Shown here piece by piece: positions 3,513 through 63,974 of a stretch of 64,000 bases of DNA. The first letter of the stretch is position 1. Every line of letters begins with the position of its first letter. Both the position numbers and the translations under genes were made by a program. The DNA is from an uncultured virus (IMG/VR IMGVR_UViG_3300020294_000004) (lineage: Duplodnaviria; Heunggongvirae; Uroviricota; Caudoviricetes; Crassvirales): IMG/VR virus record IMGVR_UViG_3300020294_000004; one strand, 5' to 3'. Below the pieces are notes generated by a model, which had not been told where the DNA came from, made no database searches, and saw nothing but the letters and a program-made list of their open reading frames with translations.

Positions 3513-3769
3513 AATACAACTACAACATCCTGTAACTTAATAACAATAAATTTTTCTTTATTAAACTCTATACCATGACCAGCAGCTTTATCATAATATA
3601 TTATAGTATCTTTTTTTAATACTTTTATTTCATCACTAACAGAAATTATTTTAGCTTTTCTATATCTTAAATCTTCCCTGTCTTTTTCAACTATTAATAA
3701 ACCACCTTTAGTTTTTTCAGTAATTACTTTTTCGGGTTTAATAATTATATTATTACCTATTGCTTTCAT
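3509..3769 (-). CDS. groES: co-chaperonin GroES
   Basis: [12 protein letters not shown]...KTKGGLLI...DVV motifs; adjacent to groEL. Confidence 0.9.
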   Translation of the reverse strand: MKAIGNNIIIKPEKVITEKTKGGLLIVEKDREDLRYRKAKIISVSDEIKVLKKDTIIYYDKAAGHGIEFNKEKFIVIKLQDVVVVL

Positions 3770-5315
3770 TAGTTCTTATGTTATTAATTACACAATCGGT
3801 TGATAATATTGTTGTTGCTACTGATACAGCATTTATTAAAGCACTTTTAGTTACAAGTAATGGATCTATAATTCCAGCTTTAATCATGTCTACATTTTCA
3901 CCAGTAATTACATTTAATCCTTTACCTTTTATTTGGCCTATTAATTTAGGCAAATTTTCACACTCAATACCTGCGTTATTTAAAATAACTTTAAAAGGGT
4001 ATTTTATAGCATTTAAAAGTACTTGTTCTGCAGTGTTTTTTGTTTTAATTTCTTCTGAAGCATTTAATAAAGCAATACCACCACCAGGTACAATACCTTC
4101 TTTAATAGCTGCTTTAGTAGCACATATTGCATCTTCTATTCTATCTGCTTTTTCTTTTAACTCTATATCAGAGTTTGCACCAACTTTAACAACTGCGATT
4201 TTAGCTGATAACCTTGCTAATCTTTTTTCTAATCTTATTACATGTGCTGGATTAGGTTTATTAGCTAATTCTTCTTTTACTGTTTCAATAGCTTTTATTA
4301 CAGCTTCACTTGGTTCACCAACTTGTATTATGGTATCTTTTTCATCCGTTATAGATTTTAAGCAACTACCTAAAAATTCAGGTTGAATTAAATCCATATC
4401 ATCTCCAAGATCTTCATTAATGACAGTAGCTCCTGTAAGCATAGCTAAATCATCTAATGTTTCACGTTTATTAACACCAAATGTAGGTGCGTTAATAATA
4501 TTTATTTTAATATTACCTTTTGTTTTATTCATGGCAAGTGTAGCCATGACAGGTGCTTCTACATCAGCAACAATTAATAAAGGTATATTCTTTTTTATAA
4601 CATATTCTAATACAGACTGTATTTGTCTTATGTTTTCTACAGGTGATTCTATAAGTAAAATAGCAGGTTTTTCTAGCTCTGCAGTTTTCTTTGCTTTATT
4701 TGTAATAAAATGTTGGTTTGTTAAACCTTTATCATATTGAACTCCATCAACTAAATCAACATTTGTTTCAGGAAGTGATGAATGTTCCATCATTACAACA
4801 CCTGTTTGACCAACAGATCTAAAAGCATCACCAATTATTTTACCAAGTTTAGGTTCATTATTAGTAGATATAGTAGCTATTTGATCTATCATATCACCTT
4901 TTACAGGTAAAGTATTTTTTTCTAAATATTTTAATACTTTTTTAAGAGCAGAATTTATACCTTGTTTTAATTCTCTACTATTTATTTCTAAATTTTCTGC
5001 TTCTTTTAATATAGCATGAGATAAAACTGTAGCTGTGGTTGTACCATCTCCTGCTTCATTTACTGTTTTACGTGCAGCTTCTTTTAAAAGTCTTGCACCC
5101 ATATTTTCTACAGGATCTAATAAAGTTATTGAATTAGCAACAGTAACACCATCTTTTGTTATTATAGGATTACCTTGATCATCTTCAAGTAACACACACT
5201 TACCGCTAGCACCTAAAGTAGAGCTAACGGCTTGTGTTAGTTTATCAATTCCTTTAAATACTTGACTTTGAGCTACTTGCCCAAAATTAAGATTTTTGAC
5301 TATTAAGTCTGACAT
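3753..5315 (-). CDS. groEL: chaperonin GroEL
   Basis: [33 protein letters not shown] motifs; 520 aa, no GGM tail. Confidence 0.97.
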
Positions 5316-7443: not shown

Positions 7444-7452
7444 AATTTTAAC

Positions 7453-8985
7453 TTATAATCCAAAATCTGCTTTATCAGCATTATAATTTTTTAATACTTC
7501 TGCATCTGATAGTGCTTTTGTATAAACTCTTATTATTCCTAACTCTCCTACGAAACTATTGCTAGATCCCCATGGTAAAAATCCATAATCTATTGATGCA
7601 TTAGCACCCGCTGCAGTTCTTCCAGCTCCTCTTGTAGAAGTTGCTACCGAAGATCCATCTATCCATCCATATCTTACATTACTACTATATGATTGAACTA
7701 TTTGATGCCATACTCCTACGCTTACATCAATATTTGGGTTATAATAATCTGTTGTTCCAGTATAACTAGCCCATTGCAAATCGGCATTTGTACCTGGTGC
7801 TTGTATATAATTTATAAATCCTCCCCCTGTATACATAGAGGCACTTTGAACATAAATACCTGCTGTTGGCAGTTTAACCCATAATTCAACAGTAAAATTA
7901 GCACCATAGCCACTTGGCATAGGATGAGATAATTTAGTGGTACTGTTAGTTGTTATTATTTTACTTGTAGTATCATAGCTAAAAGCATTACTTCCACTAT
8001 ATACTGCAAAAGTACCGTTCCTGCTATTTCCAGATAAATCTACCCATTGCGTGTTTGCCGCATTAGTACCACTGCTAAAGTTAGCAGTAGATGTACCATC
8101 TTTAGCTGATAAATAAACAGCTAAATCACTTGTAACATAATTTGGAGGAATTGAATAATTTGTTAGTGTAACCCAACCACTTGTAACAGGATCACCTGTT
8201 GTTTTATAAAATTGCATAGCGCTAGTAGAACCAGCTGATGATAAATCAGTGTTTGTTCTTAGCATACCTTCAACTTTTGTTAATTGGCCTTCTGTATATA
8301 ATTGAGATATTTCAGAAGCCGTTAATGCACTACTATAAAATCTTATTTGATCTAATGAGCCAGTATAACCATCTCCTAATCTAGTTAATGAAGCTAAATC
8401 AGTTAAATTACTAAATGAACCTGTTGCACTTTGAGTTCCATTAGTATAAAAAGTATAACCACCAGAACCATCTGATACAGCAGCAAAATGTGTCCATGTG
8501 TTTGCTGTTAATTCTGAGCTTACATTTGTTATATTGCTATTATCAGAATCTCTAAAAGTTATATATGCTGCTTCTTGAGCTATATAATACCTAGTAGCAT
8601 TACTACTATTGTAAGAATAAAATAATATTTTATCACTGTCTGTTACATTGCCTAGATAAATCCACATACTTAATGTATTAGCATTTTCTCTTTCAAACAT
8701 GCCACTAGGAAGAGTAATATAACTTACGCTAGTAAAATTAGCTGCATTACCATATTTACCAGCAGAATAACTTATACTATTATCACCAGTAGAGTTGTAA
8801 TTACCACACGTATCATTACCGTTACTATTAAGTTCATATAAAGCTCTGGCAGCTGTTATAAAAGAACAACCTTGACTTACACCATCTGTTATATTAGATG
8901 TTGTACCTACACATCCTTTTAATCCTTGTGTATTACCAGTCTGATTTAAATCGATAAGATCATTTATTATTTTTGTTGTTGCCAT
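7453..8985 (-). CDS. double LamG-domain virion protein
   Basis: Two LamG-like domains (WTHFAAV...GSLDQIRFYSSAL; WHQIV...GELGIIRVYTKALS). Confidence 0.7.
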   Translation of the reverse strand: MATTKIINDLIDLNQTGNTQGLKGCVGTTSNITDGVSQGCSFITAARALYELNSNGNDTCGNYNSTGDNSISYSAGKYGNAANFTSVSYITLPSGMFERENANTLSMWIYLGNVTDSDKILFYSYNSSNATRYYIAQEAAYITFRDSDNSNITNVSSELTANTWTHFAAVSDGSGGYTFYTNGTQSATGSFSNLTDLASLTRLGDGYTGSLDQIRFYSSALTASEISQLYTEGQLTKVEGMLRTNTDLSSAGSTSAMQFYKTTGDPVTSGWVTLTNYSIPPNYVTSDLAVYLSAKDGTSTANFSSGTNAANTQWVDLSGNSRNGTFAVYSGSNAFSYDTTSKIITTNSTTKLSHPMPSGYGANFTVELWVKLPTAGIYVQSASMYTGGGFINYIQAPGTNADLQWASYTGTTDYYNPNIDVSVGVWHQIVQSYSSNVRYGWIDGSSVATSTRGAGRTAAGANASIDYGFLPWGSSNSFVGELGIIRVYTKALSDAEVLKNYNADKADFGL

Positions 8986-8988
8986 ATT

Positions 8989-11031
8989 TTAAGATCTAAA
9001 TGCCATATATATAAATGAACTACTTACAGAGTTATCATTTAAACCACTTGTAACATCAAATCCTGTTGAAGTAAAAGTTACATAATTAGTGGTTGACTCT
9101 GCGGTACCTGTATTTACTGTTATACTATTTTGACTTCCTCTTTTATTGTCTTGAACAAACCAAGAACCTCCTGCAGTATAATCTTTTATCATAACCCAAC
9201 CTACTTCAAAACCTGTGTTTATAGATTGTGTATTTCCACTACCTGTACCGGCATAACTGCCTATTTTAGAATATCCGCTAATAGAAGACCAACAATACGC
9301 AATCCAAATTACCGAACCACTTGTCCAATCATTTTCAAATATTGTAGAATTGACAGTAGAAAAACTATTAGCTCTAGTTGTTTGTGCAGCAGTAGAAGAC
9401 AGTAATAAGTATTTTCCTGTACCTACATCTTTATGCCAAACTTGCCAATCTTCTGCAACGTCTACTCCTTTAAGTATAATCATGCCTATATCGGATCCTA
9501 GACCATGACCTACATTAATTGTTCCACCAGCAGAAGAAGTTTTTACAATACTAAAACCAGCAGTTGCATTTTTAGATATTGTTGAAGTTGTAGTACCATC
9601 AGGATTTGATACAGCTGTACCTCCGGCTTTCCATGCCCATTGTACATTAGTACCACTACCTCCTGAGCCAATAGAAGCATAAGTACCTATTGTAGTACTT
9701 GTTGCATTAAAAGCAGTTACACCTGATCTAACGCCTTCAGCGTCATTACTAGTCGGCCAAAGATTATTACTAGCACCTCTTACTGAATCATAAATAAAAT
9801 TACCATTTGCATATTGCCTGTTTGAAACCCAAGCTAAATCAGCTTGAAAACCTGTTGTAACAGTTGTATTGTTACCATTAAATAATGTGGTAATAAAATT
9901 ACCTGTAGCAGTTGGTGGTGTATAATCAGAAACTAATGTACCTGCTATTTGTTGCCATAAAGATCCGTTATAAAACTCTAAAGCACCAGTATCTGTATTA
10001 TCTCTTAATAATCCTTCTGTAGGTGAAGAGGGTCTACCAGTTCCTGTACCTGTAAAAGTTACAGTACCAGTACCTGCTGTTATTTTTATATATTTATCAC
10101 TACCTATAGTTACTTCAGCATCAGCTGCTCCTCCTGCTCCTGCACTATATGTAGCCGTAAGACCATTAGAATACCTTAAGATTATTACTCCAGAGCCACC
10201 TGCTCCTGTAATTGTAGCATTGCTAGCGGAAGCATTAGCACCGCCGCCTCCACTCCCGGTGTTTATTGCGCCATCAAATCCTGAAGTGTTAAGTGGTGCT
10301 GGTCCACCATTACCACCAACTCCTGATCCACCTGTACCTGGAGACCCTGAGAGATAAGTTCCACCGCCGCCACCGCCTGCATAAAACACTCCTGTAGCGC
10401 CAGTTATTTGATTTTCTAATCCATCGCCACCATTACCGCCGCCACCAGACGTAGCATTAACACCTACTGATCCCGCTCCTCCACCACCGCCTGGGGGAAA
10501 AGGATTAGAATTTTGTCCACCATCACCTCCTGCAAATCCTTGGACTACGGGTGAGCTTACAGCTGCTGCTCCGGTTTGGTTATTAGCACCGCCCCCTCCT
10601 CCTGATCCACCAGTGCCAGGTGTTGTTTGTGTATTATAAGAAGACCCTGCTCCTCCTCCAGTTGAGGTTATAGGAGATCCAGTAAAGCTTCCAGAAAATG
10701 TAGAATCTGATCCGTTATTTCCAGATAGATTTGTTCCTCCAGAGCTAACCCCAGCTGCGCCAGCACCAACTGTTACCGTATAGGCAACATTTATTGATAA
10801 AGCCACTGGAGACTCCATTGATCCTCCGCTTAATGTAATAGGTGATACCGTTCCATAAGAGGTTCGGTAACCGCCTGCTCCTCCACCGCCTCCATGGAAA
10901 GTTGCTCCACTTCCGCCACCAGCTACAACTAAAAAATCAACATTAAGACTAGTTGTACCTGAGGGTATAGTTAAAGCTGTAGTGTTACCACTAAGATCTA
11001 TGCTATCTGTTGATAATTTAGTTAATGCCAT
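8989..11031 (-). CDS. Gly-rich tail-fibre-type protein
   Basis: FLVVAGGG...GGSGVIILRY domain plus C-terminal domain with DSVRG, AGFSIV, GYSKIGSY, GFEVGWVMIK, IYMAF. Confidence 0.7.
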   Translation of the reverse strand: MALTKLSTDSIDLSGNTTALTIPSGTTSLNVDFLVVAGGGSGATFHGGGGGAGGYRTSYGTVSPITLSGGSMESPVALSINVAYTVTVGAGAAGVSSGGTNLSGNNGSDSTFSGSFTGSPITSTGGGAGSSYNTQTTPGTGGSGGGGGANNQTGAAAVSSPVVQGFAGGDGGQNSNPFPPGGGGGAGSVGVNATSGGGGNGGDGLENQITGATGVFYAGGGGGGTYLSGSPGTGGSGVGGNGGPAPLNTSGFDGAINTGSGGGGANASASNATITGAGGSGVIILRYSNGLTATYSAGAGGAADAEVTIGSDKYIKITAGTGTVTFTGTGTGRPSSPTEGLLRDNTDTGALEFYNGSLWQQIAGTLVSDYTPPTATGNFITTLFNGNNTTVTTGFQADLAWVSNRQYANGNFIYDSVRGASNNLWPTSNDAEGVRSGVTAFNATSTTIGTYASIGSGGSGTNVQWAWKAGGTAVSNPDGTTTSTISKNATAGFSIVKTSSAGGTINVGHGLGSDIGMIILKGVDVAEDWQVWHKDVGTGKYLLLSSTAAQTTRANSFSTVNSTIFENDWTSGSVIWIAYCWSSISGYSKIGSYAGTGSGNTQSINTGFEVGWVMIKDYTAGGSWFVQDNKRGSQNSITVNTGTAESTTNYVTFTSTGFDVTSGLNDNSVSSSFIYMAFRS

Positions 11032-11040
11032 ATTATACTA

Positions 11041-13668
11041 TTATGTTGTTGAAACAACTTCTATTCCGTTTGTTTGCGTTACAGGTGGAGGATTACTTAC
11101 TCCAAAATCAAGAGTTGATCCTGATATTGAATATGAATTTTTTTGTTGATAAACACCTGATATGTATACATCAGTGTAAGCTGTGCTAGATGGAGAAACA
11201 CCTAAGGTAAATTGATAAGCGGTTCCATCTCCTGTAAAATTGTTTACTGTTTTAGTTGGAAGTCCACCAGCATCTTGCCAAGTACCATCACCTCTTAAAA
11301 ATTTAGTTGTGTCTGTTCCACCACTTGCATCTGGTACATGACCAATTGTAGCACCACCTCCAAAAACTGTAGATGTTATAGTTAAGGTATCGGTAGCACC
11401 AGCAGCTGTAGTTATAGCTGTATTGCCTGATGTTATAAGAACTGTGTTATTATTTGAAATATCTTGTGTACCTGTTTGACCAGTTAACACCCACTTTTCA
11501 TAACTTACAGGTGCATTGATCCAATCAACACCAGCACCTCCACCACCAAGTGAAGATAATAATTGACCAGCTGAACCTGTACCTCCATTTACATCAATTA
11601 AATCTGCATCAAGTTCTAAATCTGCTTGCGCTGTTATTTTTCCTGTAACATTTGTAGGATTACTAATAGTAACTAAACTACCTGTATCTGCAATACTTGA
11701 ATCTGCTAATGCACTTGTTCCACTCCATTTAGCTAATTGGTTTGCTGTACCTGTACCTGTTACAGTACCTGTACCTGCACCAATATAAGTTTTAATTGTA
11801 GATAATGTAACTTCTTTTACTTCATTTCCTGCAGTTGAATCGTTTACTATAATTTTATCATTATTAACTACTGTGCCTAAAACGTTAGGTGCTGCAAGTA
11901 CTATATTGTTAGCTGTTGTATAATCAGGTGATATTGTACCTGTACCTGTTATTGGACCACCTGTTAAACCAGCGCCTGTTGCAACACTTGTAACACCTGT
12001 ACCTGTAGCAGTAGCAAAAATATTACCACCCATACTAGCACCGTGTATATAACATGTATAGTAAAGCGTTGGAGATCCTTGTTGTAGTGTTACTCTTAAT
12101 CTCCTAGTTGTAGCTGCATTAAAGTTTGTTGTATTAACCCAATCAGATTGTGTTGTTACAACGTTATCTAATAAATAAACTACACCTGTATTATAAACAG
12201 TTGTACTAGGAGTAGTTGTGCTTATTACAAGTGGATGCCCATCATTAGTTGCAGCATCTTGATTTATAAAAAATGTAGTACCTCTAGCAAGATACATGTC
12301 TTCTTGAGAGTTACCATCAACTACAAAAACACCACCAGCTACAGTTATAGTAATACTATTTAATGTTGTTGACGTTACAAAACCATCTGCAGTAGCAGCA
12401 AACATTTGGTTATCAAAACTTGCTACACCTTTAGTTGTACCAGCATCTGTTGCACCAGCTGTTGCAGGTACTACGTTTGATTCAACTGTTGTCCAATCAT
12501 TAACTGTAGAAGCACCAATAGCAGCAGCTGTTTTACATATTACTTGATCACCGATACCAAGTGGTTCACTACCGTAAAAACTACCAGCTGTTGTAACTAC
12601 ATATAAATCACCGACTGCAATTGCAACTCTTGATGCACCTGTTGTTAAATTACCACCACCATCTATTGCACCTGTACCCGCATTAAATCCACCTTTAAAT
12701 TCTACAGATCCAATAAGTGCGTTATCAATAGCTGTTTGTATTTGAGCACCTGTAGCTAAGTTAGGTGAGCTACCACTTACCGCTGCTGTTACAGCTGTTA
12801 AAGCTGGAGTTGAACTTGGGTTTGCTACAGTTATAGTATCAGTGTTAGCTGAGCTTACATTAGTAACACCTGCTGTTGCAGCTGCTATAGTAACCTGCGT
12901 AGCATTATCTCTTGTAAGTGTCATGTTATTACCAGCAACAAGTTTAACTGTAGAGTCATCACCTGTTGATGTAGATACTAAATTTAAATTAACATCATTA
13001 ACACTTTGTGTTGCGTTTAAATCATATTTATCTGCTACGGTTGTAAGATCTAACCATTGAGCAGCACCTGCACCTTGAGAGCTTAATACATAACCTGATG
13101 TACCAGTACTACCATTTGCTGATAATGTACCTGTTATTGTAACATTTGTGCTGTTTACATTTACAGCACTAGCTGTACCTGATAAAAATAAATCTTTCCA
13201 CCTGCCTGTACCTGTTATACCTAAATCATATGTTGCATCTGCTAATGGTGTAAGTATTTTACCAACAGTTATAGTTGTGCCACCACCTGGTTCTGCAAGT
13301 GATGAATTACCAAGCGCTGCAGTTGTAGACCATATTGGTATAGCATATTGAACACCTGATATACCACCTAGTTTGTTATTAAAAGTTGTCCAATCAGTAG
13401 AACTTAAATAACCATCTGTTGATGTATCTGCTTGTGGAATACTTACTGTACCATCTTTTGTTATTGTACCACCTGTAAGTGGGGCTGTAAATGTTATTGA
13501 CTCAACACCTATACCACCTAACGTTTTAATATAATCTGTTAGGGTTTGTATTGAATAACTTCTTGTTACATTAGTTTGTTTACCGTCCTGTGTAACAGTA
13601 GAAGTACCAATTAAAAGATCGGCAGCTTGTGGATTTGTTTCTTGAGGATAGCTGTATATTATTGCCAT
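11041..13668 (-). CDS. tail fibre protein with a cupredoxin-like insert
   Basis: MAIIYSYP N-terminus; T/G-rich repeats (GYLSSTDW, FLRGDGTW); GHP...YYTCYIHGASM motif. Confidence 0.7.
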   Translation of the reverse strand: MAIIYSYPQETNPQAADLLIGTSTVTQDGKQTNVTRSYSIQTLTDYIKTLGGIGVESITFTAPLTGGTITKDGTVSIPQADTSTDGYLSSTDWTTFNNKLGGISGVQYAIPIWSTTAALGNSSLAEPGGGTTITVGKILTPLADATYDLGITGTGRWKDLFLSGTASAVNVNSTNVTITGTLSANGSTGTSGYVLSSQGAGAAQWLDLTTVADKYDLNATQSVNDVNLNLVSTSTGDDSTVKLVAGNNMTLTRDNATQVTIAAATAGVTNVSSANTDTITVANPSSTPALTAVTAAVSGSSPNLATGAQIQTAIDNALIGSVEFKGGFNAGTGAIDGGGNLTTGASRVAIAVGDLYVVTTAGSFYGSEPLGIGDQVICKTAAAIGASTVNDWTTVESNVVPATAGATDAGTTKGVASFDNQMFAATADGFVTSTTLNSITITVAGGVFVVDGNSQEDMYLARGTTFFINQDAATNDGHPLVISTTTPSTTVYNTGVVYLLDNVVTTQSDWVNTTNFNAATTRRLRVTLQQGSPTLYYTCYIHGASMGGNIFATATGTGVTSVATGAGLTGGPITGTGTISPDYTTANNIVLAAPNVLGTVVNNDKIIVNDSTAGNEVKEVTLSTIKTYIGAGTGTVTGTGTANQLAKWSGTSALADSSIADTGSLVTISNPTNVTGKITAQADLELDADLIDVNGGTGSAGQLLSSLGGGGAGVDWINAPVSYEKWVLTGQTGTQDISNNNTVLITSGNTAITTAAGATDTLTITSTVFGGGATIGHVPDASGGTDTTKFLRGDGTWQDAGGLPTKTVNNFTGDGTAYQFTLGVSPSSTAYTDVYISGVYQQKNSYSISGSTLDFGVSNPPPVTQTNGIEVVSTT

Positions 13669-30747: not shown

Positions 30748-31716
30748 ATGGGATTATTTGATCAAAGAATACATTATAAACCATTTGAATATCCTGAATA
30801 CTATAATGATGGATGGTTAAAACAAGCACAAGCTTTTTGGTTACACACAGAAATACCTATGTCAAGTGATGTTAAAGACTGGCAAGAAAAACTTACTGAT
30901 GGTGAAAAAAATTTAGTAGGTAATATATTACTAGGTTTTGCACAGACAGAGTGTGCTGTATCAGATTATTGGACACAAAAAGTTGTAGGTTGGTTTCCTA
31001 AACATGAAATACAACAAATGGCTATGATGTTTGGATCACAAGAAACAATACATGCGGTAGCTTATTCTTATTTAAATGAAACACTTGGTCTTGAAAATTT
31101 TGAAGCGTTTTTACAAGACGAAGCAACAATGGAACGCTTTGATAATTTAATTAGTTATGATGGAAACGACACCACAGGAATTGCAAGAAGCATTGCAATC
31201 TTTAGCGCCTTTGCTGAGGGCGTTAGTCTTTATTCTGCCTTTGCTGTTTTATATAGTTTTCAACTCAGAAATCTTTTAAAAGGTATAGGTCAGCAAATGA
31301 AATGGTCTGTTAGAGACGAATCTTTACATTCTAAAATGGGTTGTAGGTTATTTAGACATATGTGTGAAGAGGATGATTCACTTTTAAATAAATGTAAAAA
31401 AGATGTTATTAATGCAGCAAACGCAATGCTCGTCGCAGAAGAAAAATATATTGATAAAATGTTTGAACAAGGAGATATTGAAAACCTCAAATCCTACAAT
31501 CTTAAACAATTTATCAGAAAAAGACTTAATGAAAAGCTCGTGGAACTCGGTTACAGGAACGAACGGGAGCACTTTGATTATAACAAAAACGCAGCAAAAA
31601 AACTTGATTGGTTCTACCACCTTACAGGAGGGCATACTCATACTGATTTTTTCGCTGTTAGGCCTACTGATTATTCAAAAGCGAATGAGGGCGAAGATTT
31701 TGAAGATATATGGTAA
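30748..31716 (+). CDS. nrdB: ribonucleotide reductase class I beta subunit
   Basis: KPFEYP, FW..EI, ETIH..AYS, EG..LYS.F, RDE.LH, DFF..R.T.Y. Confidence 0.95.
   Translation: MGLFDQRIHYKPFEYPEYYNDGWLKQAQAFWLHTEIPMSSDVKDWQEKLTDGEKNLVGNILLGFAQTECAVSDYWTQKVVGWFPKHEIQQMAMMFGSQETIHAVAYSYLNETLGLENFEAFLQDEATMERFDNLISYDGNDTTGIARSIAIFSAFAEGVSLYSAFAVLYSFQLRNLLKGIGQQMKWSVRDESLHSKMGCRLFRHMCEEDDSLLNKCKKDVINAANAMLVAEEKYIDKMFEQGDIENLKSYNLKQFIRKRLNEKLVELGYRNEREHFDYNKNAAKKLDWFYHLTGGHTHTDFFAVRPTDYSKANEGEDFEDIW
31157..31279 (+). CDS. putative overprinted (+1) membrane peptide within nrdB
   Basis: MMETTPQELQEALQSLAPLLRALVFILPLLFYIVFNSEIF; local GC-rich synonymous codons. Confidence 0.35.
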   Translation: MMETTPQELQEALQSLAPLLRALVFILPLLFYIVFNSEIF

Positions 31717-31738
31717 AAAGAAATATAATAAAATGTAG
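31403..31738 (+). CDS. putative overprinted (+1) membrane protein within the nrdB 3' end
   Basis: 111-aa ORF; CTC/GTC/CGG codons in nrdB avoid +1 stops; TM segment followed by a basic tail. Confidence 0.45.
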   Translation: MLLMQQTQCSSQKKNILIKCLNKEILKTSNPTILNNLSEKDLMKSSWNSVTGTNGSTLIITKTQQKNLIGSTTLQEGILILIFSLLGLLIIQKRMRAKILKIYGKKKYNKM

Positions 31739-32453: not shown

Positions 32454-32824
32454 AAAAACTAATAATATTATTTTTATTTTTATCAAACAGTTTATTTAGT
32501 CAAAACACTTTACAAGATTTTGAAGGTATATGGTCTTCACCTTATTCATATTGGTATAAAATTTTTACATACAATGAAAAAGATGATATATTAGAAATAT
32601 ATACTTTTAGTTTTGGAGATCCATCAGCTGTAGTAGAAAAAATAGTTAAAATAACTAGTAATTATGCTATTGATACTAAATTAATAAACCATGATAATAG
32701 ATGGAAAGTAAATATAACATATCGTATGTTAGAAAATAAAAAAATAATAGCTACTTATACAGGTGATATAAACACTATAGCAGAACTAACAAAAGCAACT
32801 TTAAAATTAAATCATGTGGAATAA
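32450..32824 (+). CDS. secreted protein
   Basis: MKKLIILFLFLSNSLFS-Q signal peptide, with Gln at +1 as is typical of Bacteroidota. Confidence 0.65.
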   Translation: MKKLIILFLFLSNSLFSQNTLQDFEGIWSSPYSYWYKIFTYNEKDDILEIYTFSFGDPSAVVEKIVKITSNYAIDTKLINHDNRWKVNITYRMLENKKIIATYTGDINTIAELTKATLKLNHVE

Positions 32825-34532
32825 CGATTGGGTAAAAGGTGAAGATTATCCTTCTTGGGGTAATAATGATATATACAAACAAACAATATCTGGCGGATAT
32901 TTATTTAACGGTGAATCACCTCGTGATGCTTATATGCGTGTAGCTAAAACGGTAGCTAGACGTTTATATAAACCAGAACTAGCTGATAGATTTTTTGAAT
33001 ATATATGGAATGGTTGGCTTTGTTTAGCTTCACCTGTCTTATCAAACACAGGTACAGATAGAGGTTTACCAATAAGTTGTTTTGGTATTGATGTTGCTGA
33101 TAGTATAAATGATATAGGAAAGAAAAATTTAGAAATGATGTTACTTGCAAAACACGGCGGCGGTGTAGGTATAGGCATTAATATGATTCGCCCTGCCGGA
33201 GCTAAAATTACAGGTAATGGAACTTCAGATGGCGTTGTCCCTTTTTGCAAAATATACGACTCAACTATACTCGCGACCAATCAGGGTTCCGTTAGAAGAG
33301 GAGCTGCAAGCGTTAATATCAACATTGAACACAGTGATTTCCTCGAGTGGTTGGAAATTAGAGAACCTAAAGGAGATGTCAATAGACAATCTCTTAACCT
33401 TCACCAGTGTGCTGTCATTGGCGATAAGTTTATGCGAAAGCTTGAGCAAGGAGATCAAGACGCAAGAAACAAATGGAGTAGATTACTTCAAAAACGTAAA
33501 GCAACTGGAGAACCATATATCTTATTTAAAGGAAATACAAACAAAGCTAATCCAGAAGCATATAAGAAAAACAGTTTAAAAGTACATATGACTAATATAT
33601 GTAGTGAAATAGTATTACAAACAGATGAATCTCATAGTTTTGTTTGTTGTTTATCTAGTTTAAACCTAGCTAAATATGAAGAGTGGAAAAATACTAACAT
33701 TATTTATGATTCAATATGGTTTTTAGATGGTGTGTTAGAAGAGTTTATACAAAAAGCAAAAGGTAAAATAGGTTTTGAAAATTCAGTTAGATCTGCTGAA
33801 AAGGGTAGAGCATTAGGTTTAGGAGTTTTAGGTTGGCATACTTATTTACAAGAAAAAAATATACCATTTGAAGGGCTATTGGCACAATATGAAACTAGAA
33901 AAATATTTAGTCAGATAAAAATAGAATCTGATCGAGCAAGTAGAAACTTAGCTGAAACTTATGGAGAACCTTTATGGTGTGTAGGTACAGGCATGCGTAA
34001 TACTCATCTTAGAGCTATAGCACCAACTGTTAGTAATAGTAAATTATCAGGTAATATATCACCAGGTATTGAACCATGGGCCGCTAATGTATTTACAGAA
34101 CAATCAGCTAAAGGTACATTTATTAGAAAAAACCCTACACTTATAAAGTTATTAAGAAAGTATAAACTCAACACAAATGAAATTTGGGATAAAATACTTG
34201 AAGACGGAGGTTCTGTACAGAATATTAGAGAACTTGATGATATTATGTTTAATAACAACATATCGGCTAAAGAAGTTTTTAAAACATTTAAAGAAATTAA
34301 TCAATTAGAATTAATAAATCAAGCAGGATTAAGACAACAATATGTTGATCAATCTGTATCTCTTAATTTAGCTTTTCCTTCTGAAGCAACACCTAAATGG
34401 ATTAATAAAGTACATTTTGATGCATGGAAAAAAGGTATTAAAACTTTATACTATATGAGAACTGAATCTGTTCTTAGAGGTGATATTGCTGCTTCTGCTA
34501 TGGATGAAAACTGCTTAGCTTGTGATGGTTAA
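32814..34532 (+). CDS. nrdA: ribonucleotide reductase class I alpha subunit
   Basis: SPVLSN, ISCF, QG..RRGA, TNICSE, CCLSSLN, AIAPT.S, DQSVS.N, KTLYY, C-terminal C..C. Confidence 0.96.
   Translation: MWNNDWVKGEDYPSWGNNDIYKQTISGGYLFNGESPRDAYMRVAKTVARRLYKPELADRFFEYIWNGWLCLASPVLSNTGTDRGLPISCFGIDVADSINDIGKKNLEMMLLAKHGGGVGIGINMIRPAGAKITGNGTSDGVVPFCKIYDSTILATNQGSVRRGAASVNINIEHSDFLEWLEIREPKGDVNRQSLNLHQCAVIGDKFMRKLEQGDQDARNKWSRLLQKRKATGEPYILFKGNTNKANPEAYKKNSLKVHMTNICSEIVLQTDESHSFVCCLSSLNLAKYEEWKNTNIIYDSIWFLDGVLEEFIQKAKGKIGFENSVRSAEKGRALGLGVLGWHTYLQEKNIPFEGLLAQYETRKIFSQIKIESDRASRNLAETYGEPLWCVGTGMRNTHLRAIAPTVSNSKLSGNISPGIEPWAANVFTEQSAKGTFIRKNPTLIKLLRKYKLNTNEIWDKILEDGGSVQNIRELDDIMFNNNISAKEVFKTFKEINQLELINQAGLRQQYVDQSVSLNLAFPSEATPKWINKVHFDAWKKGIKTLYYMRTESVLRGDIAASAMDENCLACDG
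33217..33579 (+). CDS. putative overprinted (+1) helical protein within nrdA
   Basis: 120-aa ATG ORF; nrdA uses CTC/GTC/ATC/GCG here, unlike its flanks. Confidence 0.5.
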   Translation: MELQMALSLFAKYTTQLYSRPIRVPLEEELQALISTLNTVISSSGWKLENLKEMSIDNLLTFTSVLSLAISLCESLSKEIKTQETNGVDYFKNVKQLENHISYLKEIQTKLIQKHIRKTV

Positions 34533-34885: not shown

Positions 34886-35239
34886 TTAATATGTCCAAAT
34901 CACATCCATGGGCTTTCCAGGATCTGAATCTACATGTATAAAGGTATTACCTATACCTATTCTATTAAAGCCTACATCTAGTAAACATATTAACAATTCA
35001 TATCTATCTCTTGAATTATTACAATGTAAATCAGCTGCATAGCCTGTTAAATGTGAGGAGTTATATTTTCCTCCTACTTTTTTATTGTGTTCTTCTGTAC
35101 GTACACCACTGTTTATTTTTATAGGTTTATCAAACTTAGCTCTTACTAAATCTAATTTTTCTAAAAAATCTTCATTCATTAATTTTCCACTACCAACTAC
35201 ATCTGGTGAATCAAACTCTGTTATTGTAAAATATTTCAT
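34886..35239 (-). CDS. peptidase M15 endolysin
   Basis: INSG.RT..HN..VGG...SSH..G.AAD...HVD; start placed at MKYF. Confidence 0.85.
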   Translation of the reverse strand: MKYFTITEFDSPDVVGSGKLMNEDFLEKLDLVRAKFDKPIKINSGVRTEEHNKKVGGKYNSSHLTGYAADLHCNNSRDRYELLICLLDVGFNRIGIGNTFIHVDSDPGKPMDVIWTY

Positions 35240-35616
35240 TTTTCTCCACATTTTTTACTAGGATCATTAACTTGTCTCCAGTCTTCTTTTTCAAACCAAT
35301 CTCTTAAAGTAGCACCTTTTTTTCTAGCACCTTTAACATTTGTTTTAGATGATCTTTTATATTTACCTTTTGCTCCGGCTGATTTTTTGGCATTAACAAG
35401 TTTTTTTCTTTGTTCTTTACTCATACTTCTTATTTTAGAAGCAGGTAAACAAGTTTTAGTTGTACCACCACCTTTTTGTTTTTTTGTAGCTGGTGAATTG
35501 CTTGAAGATCCTTTTGGAACGCAATTAGGAACTTCTCTACCCTCTTTCATTTTTGTTCCACGTTGTTCATGGGTTTTCCAACAGTTAAAAGGTGAAGATG
35601 GTTGAGTGTATGCCAT
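35236..35616 (-). CDS. small basic phage protein
   Basis: CW.....G.K.K.G..VPNCVP, CLP..K and L..WF..E.W motifs. Confidence 0.7.
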   Translation of the reverse strand: MAYTQPSSPFNCWKTHEQRGTKMKEGREVPNCVPKGSSSNSPATKKQKGGGTTKTCLPASKIRSMSKEQRKKLVNAKKSAGAKGKYKRSSKTNVKGARKKGATLRDWFEKEDWRQVNDPSKKCGEK

Positions 35617-58515: not shown

Positions 58516-60933
58516 CTATTGTGGAGCAAACTGCTCTAAACCAAATCCATCTAAATTATCATTACCAGCACTTTCAAAATTTACAGGTAATGTATCATTT
58601 TGTCTTTGATTTATTAATTCACTCTCTTGAGTTCCTTGCATTTGTACGCGTTTGTCTTTTCTATCTTCTATTTCTGTTTCTTTTTGACGTTTTGTTTGAG
58701 ATCTCATTTCTTCAAGCTGTATGTTATATCTAAATTCTTCAGCCATTAATTGTTTTTTAATTAATGCTTCTTGTTCCATACGTTGTATCTCAAATTGAGA
58801 TTTTGCTTGTTCTATTTGAACTTCGGTATCAGCTAATGCTTGGTTTTTTTGTACTTCTGCCATTGCAGCTTTTTCAGCTGACTGTGCATTGGCAGCTGCT
58901 TGAGCTTGTATATTTTCTAATTGTTGTGCTCTGTCTTTTTCTTGCTTTTGTTTTTGCCTTAACTTAAGCATTTGATTAGCAAGTTTAATATTTTTTATTT
59001 CTCTTAAATCTATTGCATCTTCTAAACCTATATTTTTAGCTTGTAATGCAATTTGTATACTTTGTTCTAGTTGAGCTTTTTCTTCTTCATCAGGTTCAAG
59101 TTCTAAAAATATACCAAAATCATGTAAAGATAATTTTTCAACTTCTTCTAATGTTGCTGTATTAAAACCATTTATACTGTTTATTAAAGACTGTTTAGTT
59201 GTTGGAAACTGTAACATATCTGATACTCTTAAACTAATATTTTCACAAACTCTTACAGTTAAATACATTAATGCTTGTAACACATGTCTTGTAGCTGTAT
59301 TAGAATTAGCAGCTGCAAGCTTTTGTAAACCAACTAAAGCATTTTTATCAGGCGTGCTACCATCTCTTGCTTCATTAAGCCCGGTTACATCTCTTATCAT
59401 TTGTAAATAATATTGATAAGTTTGTATCATTGACTGTATTTTAGACATGCCTGAAGACGTCTGTAATTCTTGCACCGGTACTTTACCTCTATTTAAATCA
59501 CCATCTTGAGTTAAAGATCTTCCTACTACACTACCTGTTTGAAAATACATATTTAACGCTTCAGCAGGATTATAATTTGTACCATTACCTAAATCAACTT
59601 CGGCTAACCCATCAACATCTAAATAAACACCATCAGGTACTAACCTTGATATTACTTGTTGTAGTTTTAAATGAGTTAATTGAATCATATCTGCAAATCC
59701 AACTGTTTTACTTACAATAGATTCTATACGGCCTTGATACATTCTAGGTGAACTAATAACGTAATTCATATTAACTTTAGTCGTATCACCAAAAGGCCTT
59801 GTCATGTTTTCACTTAATTCCCATTTTAAAAGATTATTACCAAGACCTAAAACTTTAGCTCCAGTATATAATACTTCTATTGATCTTGATATTCTATTAA
59901 AGTTATCACTAGGTGGTGGATTAAATGTATCTGGTTTTTCTAATGTTTTTTCTAAACCTTGTTCTGTTTGTTTTATTTTAAAAACTTGATCTTGATAAGT
60001 TTTATATTCAAAATATAATATTTGTACTTGATCTTTAGTGTCTTGGCCCCACCAAGTGTTTTCTAGATATGTATTTCTACCAGGGTATTTTTGTATTTCT
60101 TCTAATTCTGAATCTGTTAAATAAGGAAATTGTCTTTTAACTTCTGATAATGACATACTTTTAACCTCACCTACATAATATATATCTTCAAAATTTGGAT
60201 CATCAGTATATGAATATACTAAATTAGCTGGATTTACATAATCTATAGTTATTCCTTCAGATAAATTAAAATCAGTTTTAACACAACCTATACCTAAAAC
60301 AGTTAGATCGTATGCTAATTGTTTTTTTACTTGATCATATTTATTATAGTCTAAAATATTATTTATAACTTCTTCTTCTGCTATTTCAACACTTTGTTTA
60401 AAGTTTAATTGTAAATAAAGATCTAATTCTTCTGTAGTTCCTGGTAAATCATCTGGTGATGCTGAAGCAAATAAATTAGCATTAGGGCCTAATTGAGCTT
60501 GTAATGCTTCAATCATTTCTTTATTTTCAATATCTCTTATAGCATTTTGAGCAAATGTAGTTTTATTTTTTATAGCAAATGGATCTTGAGCAAAAGATTT
60601 TATTTCATAACCTTTTTGTGTCATACCATTTACTACTATATCTACAAACTTAGATAATATTGGTACAGGCTTCCAATCTAAATTTAAATAAGATAAATCA
60701 CCATTTATAGCTAATTCATCTTTATATTTTTGTACTGGTTGTTCTCCTCTAGCGTAAAGTCTTAGTCTATTAAAATTTTGAAAATTATTAATATATCTAT
60801 TTTGACCACTAGAGTTTTTAAACCACTCATATTCAATTGCTTGGGCTACTTGTAAACCATACTCTTTTGACTTTTTCTCTTCTTCAGGTACCACCTGATC
60901 TGGAAAAGCACTGTTATAGTTAATATTAACCAT
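58516..60933 (-). CDS. portal protein
   Basis: 805 aa directly after terminase; LDWKPVPI..KFVDIVVNG, TGLNEARDG, Q-rich C-terminal coil. Confidence 0.8.
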   Translation of the reverse strand: MVNINYNSAFPDQVVPEEEKKSKEYGLQVAQAIEYEWFKNSSGQNRYINNFQNFNRLRLYARGEQPVQKYKDELAINGDLSYLNLDWKPVPILSKFVDIVVNGMTQKGYEIKSFAQDPFAIKNKTTFAQNAIRDIENKEMIEALQAQLGPNANLFASASPDDLPGTTEELDLYLQLNFKQSVEIAEEEVINNILDYNKYDQVKKQLAYDLTVLGIGCVKTDFNLSEGITIDYVNPANLVYSYTDDPNFEDIYYVGEVKSMSLSEVKRQFPYLTDSELEEIQKYPGRNTYLENTWWGQDTKDQVQILYFEYKTYQDQVFKIKQTEQGLEKTLEKPDTFNPPPSDNFNRISRSIEVLYTGAKVLGLGNNLLKWELSENMTRPFGDTTKVNMNYVISSPRMYQGRIESIVSKTVGFADMIQLTHLKLQQVISRLVPDGVYLDVDGLAEVDLGNGTNYNPAEALNMYFQTGSVVGRSLTQDGDLNRGKVPVQELQTSSGMSKIQSMIQTYQYYLQMIRDVTGLNEARDGSTPDKNALVGLQKLAAANSNTATRHVLQALMYLTVRVCENISLRVSDMLQFPTTKQSLINSINGFNTATLEEVEKLSLHDFGIFLELEPDEEEKAQLEQSIQIALQAKNIGLEDAIDLREIKNIKLANQMLKLRQKQKQEKDRAQQLENIQAQAAANAQSAEKAAMAEVQKNQALADTEVQIEQAKSQFEIQRMEQEALIKKQLMAEEFRYNIQLEEMRSQTKRQKETEIEDRKDKRVQMQGTQESELINQRQNDTLPVNFESAGNDNLDGFGLEQFAPQ

Positions 60934-63155
60934 TAATTTAGTATTTTTGAAGTTACTCCTTTATTATTATACTTTTTAAAGTCTAAAGGTAAATTATTTA
61001 TAGTTCTTTTTACTGTTGGTGTATATCTGTTTTTATTACAAGCCATAATAGCTAAGCCAGAACTTATGGAAGCATCGTGTTTAGTTCTATTATTTATATT
61101 AAACTTAGCCCAGTCTTCTAGTGTTCTTTGAAAATACATATCACCATATCTTTCATTATTAAATCCAATAAAATTTTCAATATAATCTTCTATCGCAGCT
61201 GCATGTGCTTGTTTTATATCTTCACTTGAATTAGGTATACCACCTATTTCTCTTTCTGTAACAGATAATTTATTATATACTTTATCAGGACGATTCATAG
61301 AATAACCTCTATAACCTCTTCTTTTTAAATAATATAATAATCTAGGTTTATTATTTTCTGCAAGTAATGGCATACCATAAAAAACTAAAGCCATTAAAAC
61401 ATCTTCAAAAAATATTTCTGCTGTTTGAGGTCTTGCAATATATTCTAAAAAAAATAAATTAGGTGGTACATCTTCCATTGAAAACTTAGTTAAACCATGT
61501 AAAGAAGCTTTTGAACCTCTACCATCAACTGTTCCTGAAATATCATATGGATCACAACCAAAAGCACCAGTATGATCGTTACCTGGATATTTAACACCAT
61601 TTTTTATAATATACTTGTTTTGTAAATTATCATTAGGTACCCAAGAAACTAAAAATCTACCATTATTATTAGGAATAAATATAACTCTACTATCTTTAAT
61701 CCCATTTTCCCATTGAAAATTACCTTTTGTAATTACATTTGTATTTCTTAAATCTTCATTATAATCAATTTGTTCATAAATTTTAGTTAGATTAAATAAA
61801 GATTGTTTTGCTTCATCTCTAAAAGCGTGTTTTTCTGTTCTAGGAAATTGTCTATAAAATTCATTTAAACCGTCTTGATCATTTTTTAAACCTTCAACTT
61901 CGTTTTCCCAGTGTGAGATAACGCCAATTTCAATGTTGGATCCGTCAATACTTTTGACCGGTTTTTTTGGAGTTTCGAATACAGGAAACCCATAAGTATT
62001 AAGGTATCCTTCGTAGTTCCATTCCATAGGTATGAACAAACTATATAATCCTGAATTAGTCTGTCCGTTGCGGTTTCTTTTTGTAACATCTGACGCATCA
62101 TATAATTTTTTAAAATTATTACCTCCTTTATCTAAAGCATTAGATGTAGATCCCATCATACACCTACCTATAATTCTACTACCTAATCTTAGCGTTGTCT
62201 TCGTGACCCTCCAGTTGTTGAGGATGTTATCTGGCCTCTCCCACTTGCCCGATTCATCGTGTGCGAGGAGTTTGAGTTTCTCCCCGTCGTATGAGTTGTC
62301 ACCGGTATTCTTCCAGTCGATCGTGGTATCGAGCCCAACGAGTTCCTCGGGACGTTCATTCTGATCGATCTTACGCCTTGTGAACTTCGACGCGGGTACA
62401 CGATATGCAAGTTCCGTTTTGGGACGATCCATACCGTCCTGTATCGGTTTAAAAAAGAATGGGTAATTAACGGATATTGGTACCACTTTGTCTGTAAACA
62501 TTTTCTTCGCATCTGCTCCAGTCTTTGATAATATCCCGTACCGTGAATCACTAGATATTGTTGCCTGGTGTACGAGTTCTGATGAGGCCATAAAAGAAAA
62601 TCCCGATCTTCTATTCTTGAGATAGCACATTCCATAGGATCTGGTATCAAGTTTACAGGCTTCCCAAAATATGAAAAAGATTCTATTGGCTTCTCTGAAT
62701 TCCGCGTTGCCAACATCAATTTTTGTCCACTGCAAGTACATATAATGAGACCCAGTAATATAGCTAGGAATACCTTTGTTATAGAAACAAAAGCCTTCTT
62801 CACGTCTTTTAAACTCTTCGTCAATATAATCATACCAAGTATTTTTAAAATCTAATGATGTTTGGTTCCAATCAAAAACTGTTTTAAGTTTTGATAATTG
62901 TTTTGGGTACTCAAATATTTCCCAATATTGATCTGTTTTATTTACAGATCTTTTATATACATTTTCACTTAAAGGTAAAGCTATTTTTAAACCCTGTATT
63001 TCATATATTTCACCTATTTTACCTGTTTTACTTATAACAACTACATCGTGTTCTTTGTTATAACCTGGTTCCCATTTTTTATACCTATTATTATTTTTTA
63101 TAATTTTAGGTTTTATATGATTAGGTAAAATTTTATATAAAGTGTTTGTATACAT
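60933..63155 (-). CDS. terL: terminase large subunit
   Basis: Walker A-like KNRRSGFS, Walker B HDESGK, GST, nuclease GCDPYD...ENN...HD. Confidence 0.88.
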   Translation of the reverse strand: MYTNTLYKILPNHIKPKIIKNNNRYKKWEPGYNKEHDVVVISKTGKIGEIYEIQGLKIALPLSENVYKRSVNKTDQYWEIFEYPKQLSKLKTVFDWNQTSLDFKNTWYDYIDEEFKRREEGFCFYNKGIPSYITGSHYMYLQWTKIDVGNAEFREANRIFFIFWEACKLDTRSYGMCYLKNRRSGFSFMASSELVHQATISSDSRYGILSKTGADAKKMFTDKVVPISVNYPFFFKPIQDGMDRPKTELAYRVPASKFTRRKIDQNERPEELVGLDTTIDWKNTGDNSYDGEKLKLLAHDESGKWERPDNILNNWRVTKTTLRLGSRIIGRCMMGSTSNALDKGGNNFKKLYDASDVTKRNRNGQTNSGLYSLFIPMEWNYEGYLNTYGFPVFETPKKPVKSIDGSNIEIGVISHWENEVEGLKNDQDGLNEFYRQFPRTEKHAFRDEAKQSLFNLTKIYEQIDYNEDLRNTNVITKGNFQWENGIKDSRVIFIPNNNGRFLVSWVPNDNLQNKYIIKNGVKYPGNDHTGAFGCDPYDISGTVDGRGSKASLHGLTKFSMEDVPPNLFFLEYIARPQTAEIFFEDVLMALVFYGMPLLAENNKPRLLYYLKRRGYRGYSMNRPDKVYNKLSVTEREIGGIPNSSEDIKQAHAAAIEDYIENFIGFNNERYGDMYFQRTLEDWAKFNINNRTKHDASISSGLAIMACNKNRYTPTVKRTINNLPLDFKKYNNKGVTSKILN
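61886..62101 (-). CDS. possible overprinted (+1) ORF within terL
   Basis: 71-aa ATG ORF in the same +1 frame as 62189..62833. Confidence 0.3.
   Translation of the reverse strand: MMRQMLQKETATDRLIQDYIVCSYLWNGTTKDTLILMGFLYSKLQKNRSKVLTDPTLKLALSHTGKTKLKV
62189..62833 (-). CDS. putative overprinted (+1) membrane/lipoprotein within terL
   Basis: 214 codons without a stop; strong GC rise at about 62190-62480; basic-hydrophobic-Cys N-terminus. Confidence 0.55.
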   Translation of the reverse strand: MIILTKSLKDVKKAFVSITKVFLAILLGLIICTCSGQKLMLATRNSEKPIESFSYFGKPVNLIPDPMECAISRIEDRDFLLWPHQNSYTRQQYLVIHGTGYYQRLEQMRRKCLQTKWYQYPLITHSFLNRYRTVWIVPKRNLHIVYPRRSSQGVRSIRMNVPRNSLGSIPRSTGRIPVTTHTTGRNSNSSHTMNRASGRGQITSSTTGGSRRQR

Positions 63156-63427
63156 TATCTAGATCTTCCTTCAGCAAAACCTCCAAAATTAGAAGCTTTA
63201 GTATTTTTATTAATAGAATTAATTATATTTTCTTCTTCTTCAATTCTTGATAGTATTTCAAAAGCATCAAATATAGCTAATTTTTTTGTAGCAGCAGCGT
63301 TTTTTAATCTGTCAGCTGATACATCATCTTCTGAATCTACAATTTTTTCTTTAGCTACTTTTATTAATTCTTCAACTGCTTTTTGCCCAGCTTGGATTAT
63401 ACGTTTTTTGGTTTTGTTTATTTCCAT
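63155..63427 (-). CDS. small helical protein upstream of terL (terminase small subunit candidate)
   Basis: ATG at 63427; RLKNAAATKKLAIFDAFEIL; position. Confidence 0.5.
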   Translation of the reverse strand: MEINKTKKRIIQAGQKAVEELIKVAKEKIVDSEDDVSADRLKNAAATKKLAIFDAFEILSRIEEEENIINSINKNTKASNFGGFAEGRSR

Positions 63428-63974
63428 ATTTAAATAAAATATCATTTGATTCCATACAGTATAAAAGTTCATTATCAATAACAAACTCAAATTCTCTATT
63501 ACTTTTAAACCCAACTAGATCTCCTGTGTTAATTTTAAGGGCTTCTAACGTGCTGTTTGTATATTTTAATACTCCAGTATTTTTTATTAATTTGGTATCT
63601 TTATATACATCTTTTTCTAATACTGGTTTTACAAAACAATAATCTGCGTTTGTTTTCCACCCTTTTTTATAATACATATAAATTTGAGATGGATGTGCAA
63701 AATATAAATTGTCTTTAAAAAACTTAGTACTATTTACTGATTTGCCTTTTAAATTATAATACCTTCTAAATAAATTATGATGTACTATAACTTTGTCACC
63801 TTTTTTTATATTTGTTTTATAAGCAAGAGGTGCAGCAACTATTTCAGCATGTCTATTTATAAATTTATGATTTGATATACTTGAGTTAAGTATAAGTTCT
63901 GTGTTGTTGATTTTTAATTTATTATTATATCTTTCACCTATAGGTTTTATAATAAATTGATATATACTATTCAT
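63372..63974 (-). CDS. tandem GroES-like fold protein
   Basis: Two repeats of F(I/V)KP...GD.V... ending EF.ID.E.LYCM...DI. Confidence 0.5.
   Translation of the reverse strand: MNSIYQFIIKPIGERYNNKLKINNTELILNSSISNHKFINRHAEIVAAPLAYKTNIKKGDKVIVHHNLFRRYYNLKGKSVNSTKFFKDNLYFAHPSQIYMYYKKGWKTNADYCFVKPVLEKDVYKDTKLIKNTGVLKYTNSTLEALKINTGDLVGFKSNREFEFVIDNELLYCMESNDILFKYGNKQNQKTYNPSWAKSS

Follow-up and report, generated by a model that had tools for sequence, protein, structure and literature searches.

The question raised by this locus is whether terL, the gene for the large terminase subunit of a tailed phage, carries within it a second protein-coding gene that is read in another frame of the same strand. 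The locus lies in a stretch of 64,000 nucleotides (nt) from an uncultured virus assigned to the Crassvirales (IMG/VR record IMGVR_UViG_3300020294_000004), and this whole stretch is called the window in what follows. A preliminary description of the window had pointed to an open reading frame (ORF) of 214 codons, with a signal- or lipoprotein-like N-terminus, overprinted on the ATPase domain of the terminase. Comparison with related terL genes shows selection against stops in the +1 frame, and in this frame alone, in a clade of marine phages. On the same comparative grounds the nested ORF is very probably coding, and only slightly less probable is the full reading, in which a genuine gene has been overprinted, in the +1 frame, on the best-conserved part of terL. 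The elements concerned are these:

60933..63155, minus strand: terL, large terminase subunit and host gene of the overlap, 740 amino acids (aa), phrog_6681 (E 5.5e-162)
62189..62833, minus strand: nested ORF of 214 codons plus stop, with an ATG start, inside terL; its homologous frame is uninterrupted in 59 of the 79 relatives compared
62831..62833, minus strand: ATG of the nested ORF, lying on terL codon 108 (Tyr, TAT) and the first base of the next codon
62190..62795, minus strand: island of raised GC content at third codon positions (GC3), covering roughly codons 120-322 of terL and interpreted as the trace that the nested gene leaves in base composition

The nested ORF starts 322 nt into terL, which places it in the +1 frame, and is 645 nt long. 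Across the 18,386 codons of 44 window genes, the longest open stretches in the +1 and +2 frames measure 220 (the stretch of the nested ORF), 130, 109 and 89 codons, so that the ORF is the longest same-strand alternative-frame ORF, as had been claimed.

Whether this length has been preserved by evolution was among the checks proposed in the preliminary description, and the relatives of terL provide the answer. A scan of viral contigs gave 80 loci with 74-91% protein identity, 79 of which were usable (L009 was too short); these are the best 80 of more than 600 terL relatives in the collection scanned, and the loci of the sister clade considered below were taken in the same way. The relatives were codon-aligned to the window, with terL codons 112-262 defined as the core, and the ORF group consists of 60 sequences, the window included. 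Of the 79 relatives, 59 have a +1 frame that runs without a stop through 157-266 codons, while the 20 ORF-less relatives have 9-17 stops in it. The +2 frame is interrupted everywhere, by 14-32 stops in the 59 ORF-bearing relatives and by 21-40 in the other 20. Within the core, the mean number of stops in the ORF group is 0.0 in the +1 frame, 13.6 in the +2 frame, and 5.9, 8.1 and 13.2 in the antisense frames. The ORF-bearing sequences form 25 clusters, and their lineages are nearly independent, with synonymous sites near saturation; at sites with the same residue, codon identity is 0.60 in the 3' flank vs 0.56 at random, and 0.51 vs 0.40 in the ORF core.

Among 80 terL genes of the sister clade, whose GC3 ranges from 0.14 to 0.64, the longest +1 stretch is 35-119 codons; five of them reach 100 codons and none reaches 157. 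The deposited relatives that were checked have longest +1 stretches of 46 and 54 codons. The preliminary description had also named a result that would point away from a gene, namely relatives that keep the GC shift and have stops in the frame. The reverse pairing was observed, as relatives with the shift are stop-free and the stop-bearing ones are without the shift, and the sole exceptions are two relatives (L054 and L055) that are GC-rich throughout, with a GC3 of 0.48, yet have 7 core stops in the +1 frame. A high GC content by itself therefore does not account for the open frame. A second +1 stretch of the window terL, at codons 341-422, was considered as well and rejected, being open in only 12 of 80 sequences; the method therefore does not call everything conserved.

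Stop avoidance was then quantified by synonymous shuffling of terL. The window has no +1 stop in 215 codons, where region-wide shuffles expect 5.8 (none of 5000 reaches zero) and shuffles inside 40-codon blocks expect 2.9 (P = 0.014). When each sequence was shuffled separately, the core of the ORF group gave 3.4 stops expected and none observed (mean P 0.01), and the ORF-less relatives 5.6 observed vs 6.9 expected. The clearest result comes from the choice among NTN codons, as NTA followed by A or G yields a +1-frame TAA or TAG. Over the core codons of the ORF group, NTA accounts for 1 of 957 NTN codons before A or G vs 372 of 1046 before C or T; for the 25 cluster representatives the corresponding counts are 1 of 401 and 161 of 435, and for all 80 sequences pooled they are 108 of 1290 and 525 of 1386. 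The flanks of the ORF-bearing genes have NTA shares of 47.9% vs 46.9%, that is, no context bias. Single sites follow the same rule. All six occurrences of GTA at site 194 are followed by C, and at nine sites a +1 stop is present in 30-90% of the ORF-less relatives and in none of the 60 sequences of the ORF group, even as their codons still vary. Frame conservation and stop avoidance together strongly support the claim that a gene is overprinted on terL.

Recombination inside terL was observed in two pairs of relatives. L001 and L003 have no difference at 396 synonymous sites in the 3' part and 25 of 71 in the first 100 codons, while L010 and L012 differ synonymously at 27 of 251 in the flank and at 63 of 139 in the overlap core.

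At the aligned position of the start codon, ATG is found in 52 of the 59 ORF-bearing relatives vs 9 of the 20 ORF-less ones, and in five relatives (L033, L037, L044, L048 and L057) a replacement ATG stands four codons downstream, right after a stop. In addition, the window and many relatives have a +1 stop six codons ahead of the ATG. The retention of the ATG, and the new ATG after a stop, argue for independent initiation over frameshifting. An internal promoter finds no support, since a Bacteroidetes-type promoter motif precedes the ATG in 9 of the 59 relatives with the ORF and in 2 of the 20 without it. At its 3' end, the ORF stops at terL codons 316-323 in 32 sequences, at codon 293 in 16, and at codons 262-271 in 12.

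These different ends make it possible to ask what the GC island follows. The window is a piece of an AT-rich phage genome, with a mean GC of 0.31, and the segment 62190-62480 had been described as one of its most GC-rich; indeed, GC reaches 0.44-0.50 in 300-nt segments at 62051-62600, which is the third-highest peak after 6301-7900 and 9351-11800. In terL the island is a rise of GC3, to 40-67% vs about 10% in the rest of the gene. This rise stops where each ORF stops: at codons 272-293 GC3 is 0.68-0.71 under a running ORF (n=48), 0.21 past the ORF end (n=12) and 0.14 in ORF-less relatives, and at codons 297-316 it is 0.71 under a running ORF (n=32), 0.33-0.34 past the end (n=28) and 0.24 in ORF-less relatives. 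The third codon positions of terL are the second positions of the nested codons, and a nested frame at the 10-15% GC3 usual for the genome would be limited almost entirely to L/I/V/F, K/N/Y/D/E and stops. Every class of terL codon takes part in the rise, not just the NTN codons that could give stops, and the nested product becomes poorer in L, I, V and K and richer in S, T, R, P and G. With raised GC3 the nested frame gains codons for S, T, P, R and G and loses its stops, so that the island can be seen as the footprint of the gene; we infer that the GC-richness is better explained by the nested gene than by a cause of its own. A possible artefact, an assembly chimera at the island, is ruled out by an independent DNA run, which contains a 1215-nt contig over 62064-63278 with 0 differences and with both island edges included.

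Beneath the same island lies an antisense ORF of 110 codons (62032..62364, plus strand), which was rejected as unconserved, the antisense frames having 3-18 core stops in the relatives. As for the two strongest GC islands of the window, 6301-7900 and 9351-11800 (up to 0.54), they are located in tail-fibre-like genes (phrog_2295, phrog_24898 and phrog_19943), have their GC concentrated at the first and second codon positions, where it reflects residue composition, with a GC3 of 7-30%, and contain no long alternative-frame ORF.

The product predicted from the nested ORF is 155-219 aa long in the relatives and can be divided as follows:

62774..62833, minus strand: n-region, residues 1-20, lysine-rich, net charge +4 in the window (family median +3)
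62732..62773, minus strand: uncharged hydrophobic h-region, residues 21-34, ending in C-T-C; 12-14 residues across the family
62729..62737, minus strand: T33-C34-S35, obtained through the terL-synonymous codons Tyr TAC, Leu xTG and Gln CAG
62192..62725, minus strand: basic tail rich in S/T/P/G/R/Q/N, residues 37-214, predicted disordered

The sequence agrees with what had been noted of it, a basic and then hydrophobic N-terminus followed by CTCS, and an R/S/T-rich C-terminus. The h-region measures 12-14 residues in 56 of 59 products and 10-15 in 58 of 59, and the motif C-[TI]-[CY]-[SN]-G follows the uncharged stretch in the products of 58 of 59 relatives. Charge and h-region length fall within what the PROSITE PS51257 rule expects of a signal peptide, about 7-22 uncharged residues. 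A canonical lipobox, as defined in PROSITE PS51257, reads [LVI]-[ASTVI]-[GAS]-C, with G, A or S right before the cysteine. The terL residues H-Y-M-Y permit only I or T before either cysteine of the nested product, and T is chosen. Consequently, the description of the N-terminus as signal- or lipoprotein-like holds in part: it is signal-like by simple features and by its selected T33-C34-S35, but the canonical lipobox is absent, and the product is not classed as a lipoprotein.

That these three residues are selected is indicated by the codons used in terL. The 25 ORF-bearing representatives have TAC in 24, xTG in 25 and CAG in 21, and 18 ORF-less relatives have, at the same codons, TAT in 15, xTA in 14 and CAA in 17. 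T33-C34-S35 and G42 are kept by terL-synonymous codon choice, T180 and T192 are clearly conserved sites as well, and most of the invariant residues of the product (G57, C112, W135 and C32) are forced by Met and Trp codons of terL. The tail has a pI (isoelectric point) of 11.3 and a net charge of +21 in the window, with family medians of 10.7 and +17; S/T/P/G/R/Q/N make up about 55% of it, and it has no second hydrophobic segment. The AlphaFold model, built on a 59-sequence alignment, has a mean pLDDT (predicted local distance difference test score) of 40.7 and a single helix, residues 2-44, which is the sole part above pLDDT 50.

Searches with the product returned little in annotated families and much among unnamed proteins. 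In Pfam, the only match of the window product was sub-threshold, to Peptidase_C71 (E 0.075), and over 59 members two single-member matches were near E 0.005; PHROGs gave no match. The ESM Atlas gave low recognition, its nearest clusters being unnamed or labelled "putative lipoprotein", which is a lead only. A word-based search found 45 proteins, and a profile search found 155 at E <= 0.001 among 1.84 billion. Judged from their protein sequences alone, all the matched public proteins look like gene calls of the same nested frame, and they are always unnamed or "hypothetical". In five phage records the only match to the product is the one embedded in terL. Of 149 profile matches, 49 (P0046, P0039 and P0043 among them) are chimeras that begin in the terL frame or in the upstream gene and then pass into the nested frame, joined at differing places. 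For instance, P0046, on a 43-kb contig, consists of residues 1-115 of the window terL followed by the nested product from residue 16. Such chimeras are taken for indel errors or defective variants and give no evidence of recoding.

Several observations weigh against the reading as an overprinted gene. The nested ORF is dispensable: it is absent or destroyed in 20 of the 79 relatives, scattered over both flank and core trees, is also absent from the sister clade and from the isolates checked, and has no second copy in a complete ORF-less genome. The ORF group is defined by openness, which makes the comparison partly circular, yet the pooled test on 80 sequences also holds. Over most of the nested ORF no residue-level constraint was detected, and terL-synonymous changes in close pairs are no more conservative, by BLOSUM scores, than in a control +1 frame. 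The synonymous divergence of close pairs, overlap vs flank, goes both ways and is confounded by recombination, and the saturation of synonymous sites limits such tests further. As for the product, Pfam, PHROGs and the Atlas hold nothing solid for it, AlphaFold predicts no fold past the N-terminal helix (tail pLDDT 34-40), and the residue before the putative lipidated cysteine departs from the lipobox, being I or T before C32 and T before C34 (in 24 of 25 representatives). The strongly basic tail, with a net charge of +17, would be an awkward export substrate and may be cytoplasmic. Finally, RNA-library contigs cover parts of the region and show its presence, neither its transcription nor its translation.

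With these points in mind, four other explanations were weighed. A chance ORF would arise if a GC-rich patch, e.g., one recombined from a relative of higher GC, were stop-free by luck and then inherited; stop triplets are fewer in GC-rich DNA, recombination within terL is real (L001/L003 and L010/L012), and the window alone gives just the P of 0.014 in the block shuffle. This explanation has to face a frame that is open in 59 of 79 relatives despite near-saturated synonymous sites, stop avoidance specific to frame and context, homologues of equal or higher GC3 with 7-12 stops or at most 119 open codons, and the lack of any relative with a GC3 island containing stops; it is largely refuted and considered very unlikely. 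Marginally less credible still is the proposal that the GC island serves as a signal at the level of RNA or DNA (an RNA structure, a packaging site or some other DNA element inside terL), with the open frame as a by-product. Packaging signals may sit inside terminase genes, as is the case for small subunit genes, and the composition changes locally and abruptly, at about 62190 and 62800. Nevertheless, the RNA fold of 62189-62488 is ordinary (z = +0.39, with 121 of 200 shuffles at least as stable), the island is without direct or inverted repeats, its third positions are almost randomised between lineages, and such a signal leaves unexplained why one frame is stop-free and why GC3 falls at the stop of each ORF. 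The idea that ribosomes shift from the terL frame to give a fusion of the terL N-terminus with the +1 product, with no independent initiation, can appeal to relatives that are open in +1 well upstream of the ATG, from codon 56-90, and to the many public chimeras (49 of 149, e.g., P0046). The +1 stop six codons before the ATG, the ATG kept in 52 of 59 and its replacement after a stop where lost oppose this idea, and chimera junctions vary, resembling indel errors or defective variants in the DNA; the frameshift is rated improbable, if a little less so than the other two.

The remaining alternative accepts the nested gene and disputes its place of action: rather than being exported or lipid-anchored, the product might be tethered by its short hydrophobic stretch with the very basic tail in the cytoplasm, or be soluble, and its target would then be nucleic acid or the packaging machinery. 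The tail, with its median net charge of +17, pI of 10.7 and no second hydrophobic segment, fits such a role, the positive-inside rule would place it in the cytoplasm, and the gene sits within the packaging operon. Against this, the basic bias would be largely forced by the genetic code and the terL residues, the selected residues include a cysteine that ends the hydrophobic stretch, as for a processing or modification site, and the tail tolerates shortening from about 180 to about 120 residues. A product of this kind is possible and deserves far more weight than the three preceding explanations, while falling short of being probable.

Given that the ORF is coding, the chances that its product is targeted to the membrane are judged to be even, and any specific role at the envelope is more doubtful, so that the following scheme is tentative. 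Ribosomes would initiate internally on the terL message, at the conserved ATG, and so make the product late. The lysine-rich n-region, the 12-14 uncharged residues and the C-T-C-S-G motif would target it to the cytoplasmic membrane or across it, and one of its cysteines might be modified; in the long, basic and disordered tail composition and length would matter more than exact sequence. Acting at the cell envelope late in infection, the protein may serve in superinfection exclusion or in lysis control.

Known phage systems offer partial parallels. Like lambda Rz1 in Rz, the nested ORF would be a same-strand +1 gene wholly inside a larger late gene, and its product has a predicted N-terminal signal ending in cysteine and a mature part rich in small, polar or proline residues. 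Unlike Rz1, its host gene encodes the packaging ATPase and not a partner spanin, its product has 155-219 aa vs about 60 aa, and its lipobox is non-canonical (T or I at -1). Moreover, the endolysin gene of the window (34886..35251) is 27 kb from the nested ORF, and neither a partner nor a periplasm-spanning logic is evident here. The product thus differs from an outer-membrane spanin, a short, proline-rich lipoprotein encoded within or beside the i-spanin gene of the lysis cassette, in being embedded in terL, in its distance of 27 kb from the endolysin, and in its mature part of 120-185 residues. The E gene of phiX174, overprinted in the +1 frame of D, is similar in that an N-terminal hydrophobic helix is the constrained part and a basic tail, whose sequence matters little, tolerates truncation. 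However, phiX174 has a 5-kb single-stranded DNA genome under size pressure and E, of 91 aa, is its sole lysis factor, whereas the phage studied here has double-stranded DNA, a genome of at least 64 kb and its own endolysin. T5 Llp and the Cor proteins of phi80 and N15 are phage lipoproteins that block superinfection; they are small, have a signal peptide ending in cysteine, work at the envelope and are dispensable for growth, which fits the patchy presence of the nested ORF. They differ in being encoded by stand-alone genes, with canonical lipoboxes and folded domains, and the Pfam, PHROGs and Atlas searches revealed no homology to them. In its mode of action, the nested ORF would be most like the +1-nested membrane or envelope proteins of phages, Rz1 and E, while both its protein family and its host gene would be new.

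With the overprinted genes of viruses in general, the subject of several reviews (PMC8227390, PMC6195259 and bioRxiv 10.1101/229690), the present case shares de novo birth in the alternative frame of an older gene, a compositionally odd product predicted to be disordered, a restricted taxonomic range and fast evolution. It differs in that the nested ORF is long (645 nt) and lies within the conserved, putative ATPase portion of terL, itself a hallmark of tailed phages, and in that it goes with a local rise of GC3 in an AT-rich genome, which the titles and abstract beginnings of that literature do not describe. A gene nested in terL is likewise not reported in the titles and abstract beginnings of the literature searched.

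The host gene deserves separate comment, since the preliminary description placed both Walker motifs of its ATPase domain inside the ORF. Two stretches are relevant:

62595..62618, minus strand: candidate deviant Walker A of terL, K180-N-R-R-S-G-F-S187, by inspection only; inside the overlap
62253..62276, minus strand: candidate Walker B of terL, L294-K-L-L-A-H-D-E301, by inspection only; inside the overlap

Across 42 terL sequences, seven of the eight residues at 180-187 are invariant, the exception being N181, and so are L294, L297, H299, D300 and E301. The ATPase domain has no Pfam match and no PDB relative by sequence or profile search, and the AlphaFold model of terL, with a pLDDT of 25-30 over the ATPase part, is too poor to confirm the motifs. 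Hence, motif-like invariant stretches do lie inside the ORF, but their identity as Walker motifs is unconfirmed by Pfam, PDB or AlphaFold. The assignment of the gene itself is secure, as the match to phrog_6681 in PHROGs spans terL residues 27-737, nearly the full length, and the portal gene (phrog_6547) adjoins it, the family match and portal neighbour being what identifies a large terminase. Relatives of terL are present in 87 phage records; the closest deposited ones come from an uncultured podovirus (62% identity) and from Flavobacterium, Cellulophaga and Tenacibaculum phages (about 45%).

The window represents a podovirus with a double-stranded DNA genome at least as long as the window itself. 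It has a late operon on the minus strand, with a GroES-like gene, terL, portal and structural genes. The GroES-like gene (phrog_13932; 63372..63974, minus strand) immediately precedes the terL operon. A gene for GroEL is present too (phrog_5725, E 9.8e-132; 3753..5315, minus strand), and an antisense ORF of 208 codons (3760..4386) is found inside it. Public marine and viral metagenomes from 13 studies in all contain DNA near-identical to 61900-63400, and 14 runs contain at least half of the sampled words; the phage is therefore widespread in seawater samples.

The terL locus may not be the only one of its kind in this genome. A nested +1 ORF of 120 aa (33217..33579, plus strand) is located inside the gene for the large subunit of ribonucleotide reductase (phrog_84; 32814..34532, plus strand), and it too coincides with a local rise of GC3, to 30-47% vs about 10-17% elsewhere in the gene. 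In a comparison of 75 usable sequences, consisting of the window and relatives at 74-100% identity, the +1 frame of reductase codons 134-255 has no stop in 57, while the +2 frame has 13-28. AT-rich relatives without this ORF (L167, L168, L204 and L205) have 8-10 stops and a GC3 of 3-13%. This ORF is probably a second overprinted gene. A further +1 ORF of 111 codons (31403..31738, plus strand) lies over the 3' end of the reductase small subunit gene (30748..31716, plus strand), with 109 open codons inside that gene and a GC3 of 0.30 vs 0.22 for the gene. A broader proposal, speculative and rather unlikely to be right in all its parts, is that this lineage repeatedly overprints the +1 frame of conserved enzymes (terL and reductase) in a way detectable by GC3, and that the terL-nested protein arose de novo, is targeted to the membrane, is modified at a cysteine, controls lysis or excludes other phages, and is gained, truncated or lost between close relatives.

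In tailed phages with double-stranded DNA, overlapping genes of such length are regarded as rare, and standard gene callers forbid them; as a result, such genes stay unannotated. If the nested ORF is a gene, birth by overprinting would not be confined to tiny genomes, and a local rise of GC3 in an AT-rich genome may offer a cheap, single-genome screen for hidden +1 genes. The finding also bears on terL as a hallmark gene for phage phylogeny and classification, because its "synonymous" sites would not be neutral in this clade and would distort analyses based on codons or on the synonymous substitution rate (dS). Lastly, the full-length, truncated and lost versions that occur naturally among these marine phages would constitute a test set for a young, disordered and membrane-targeted protein.

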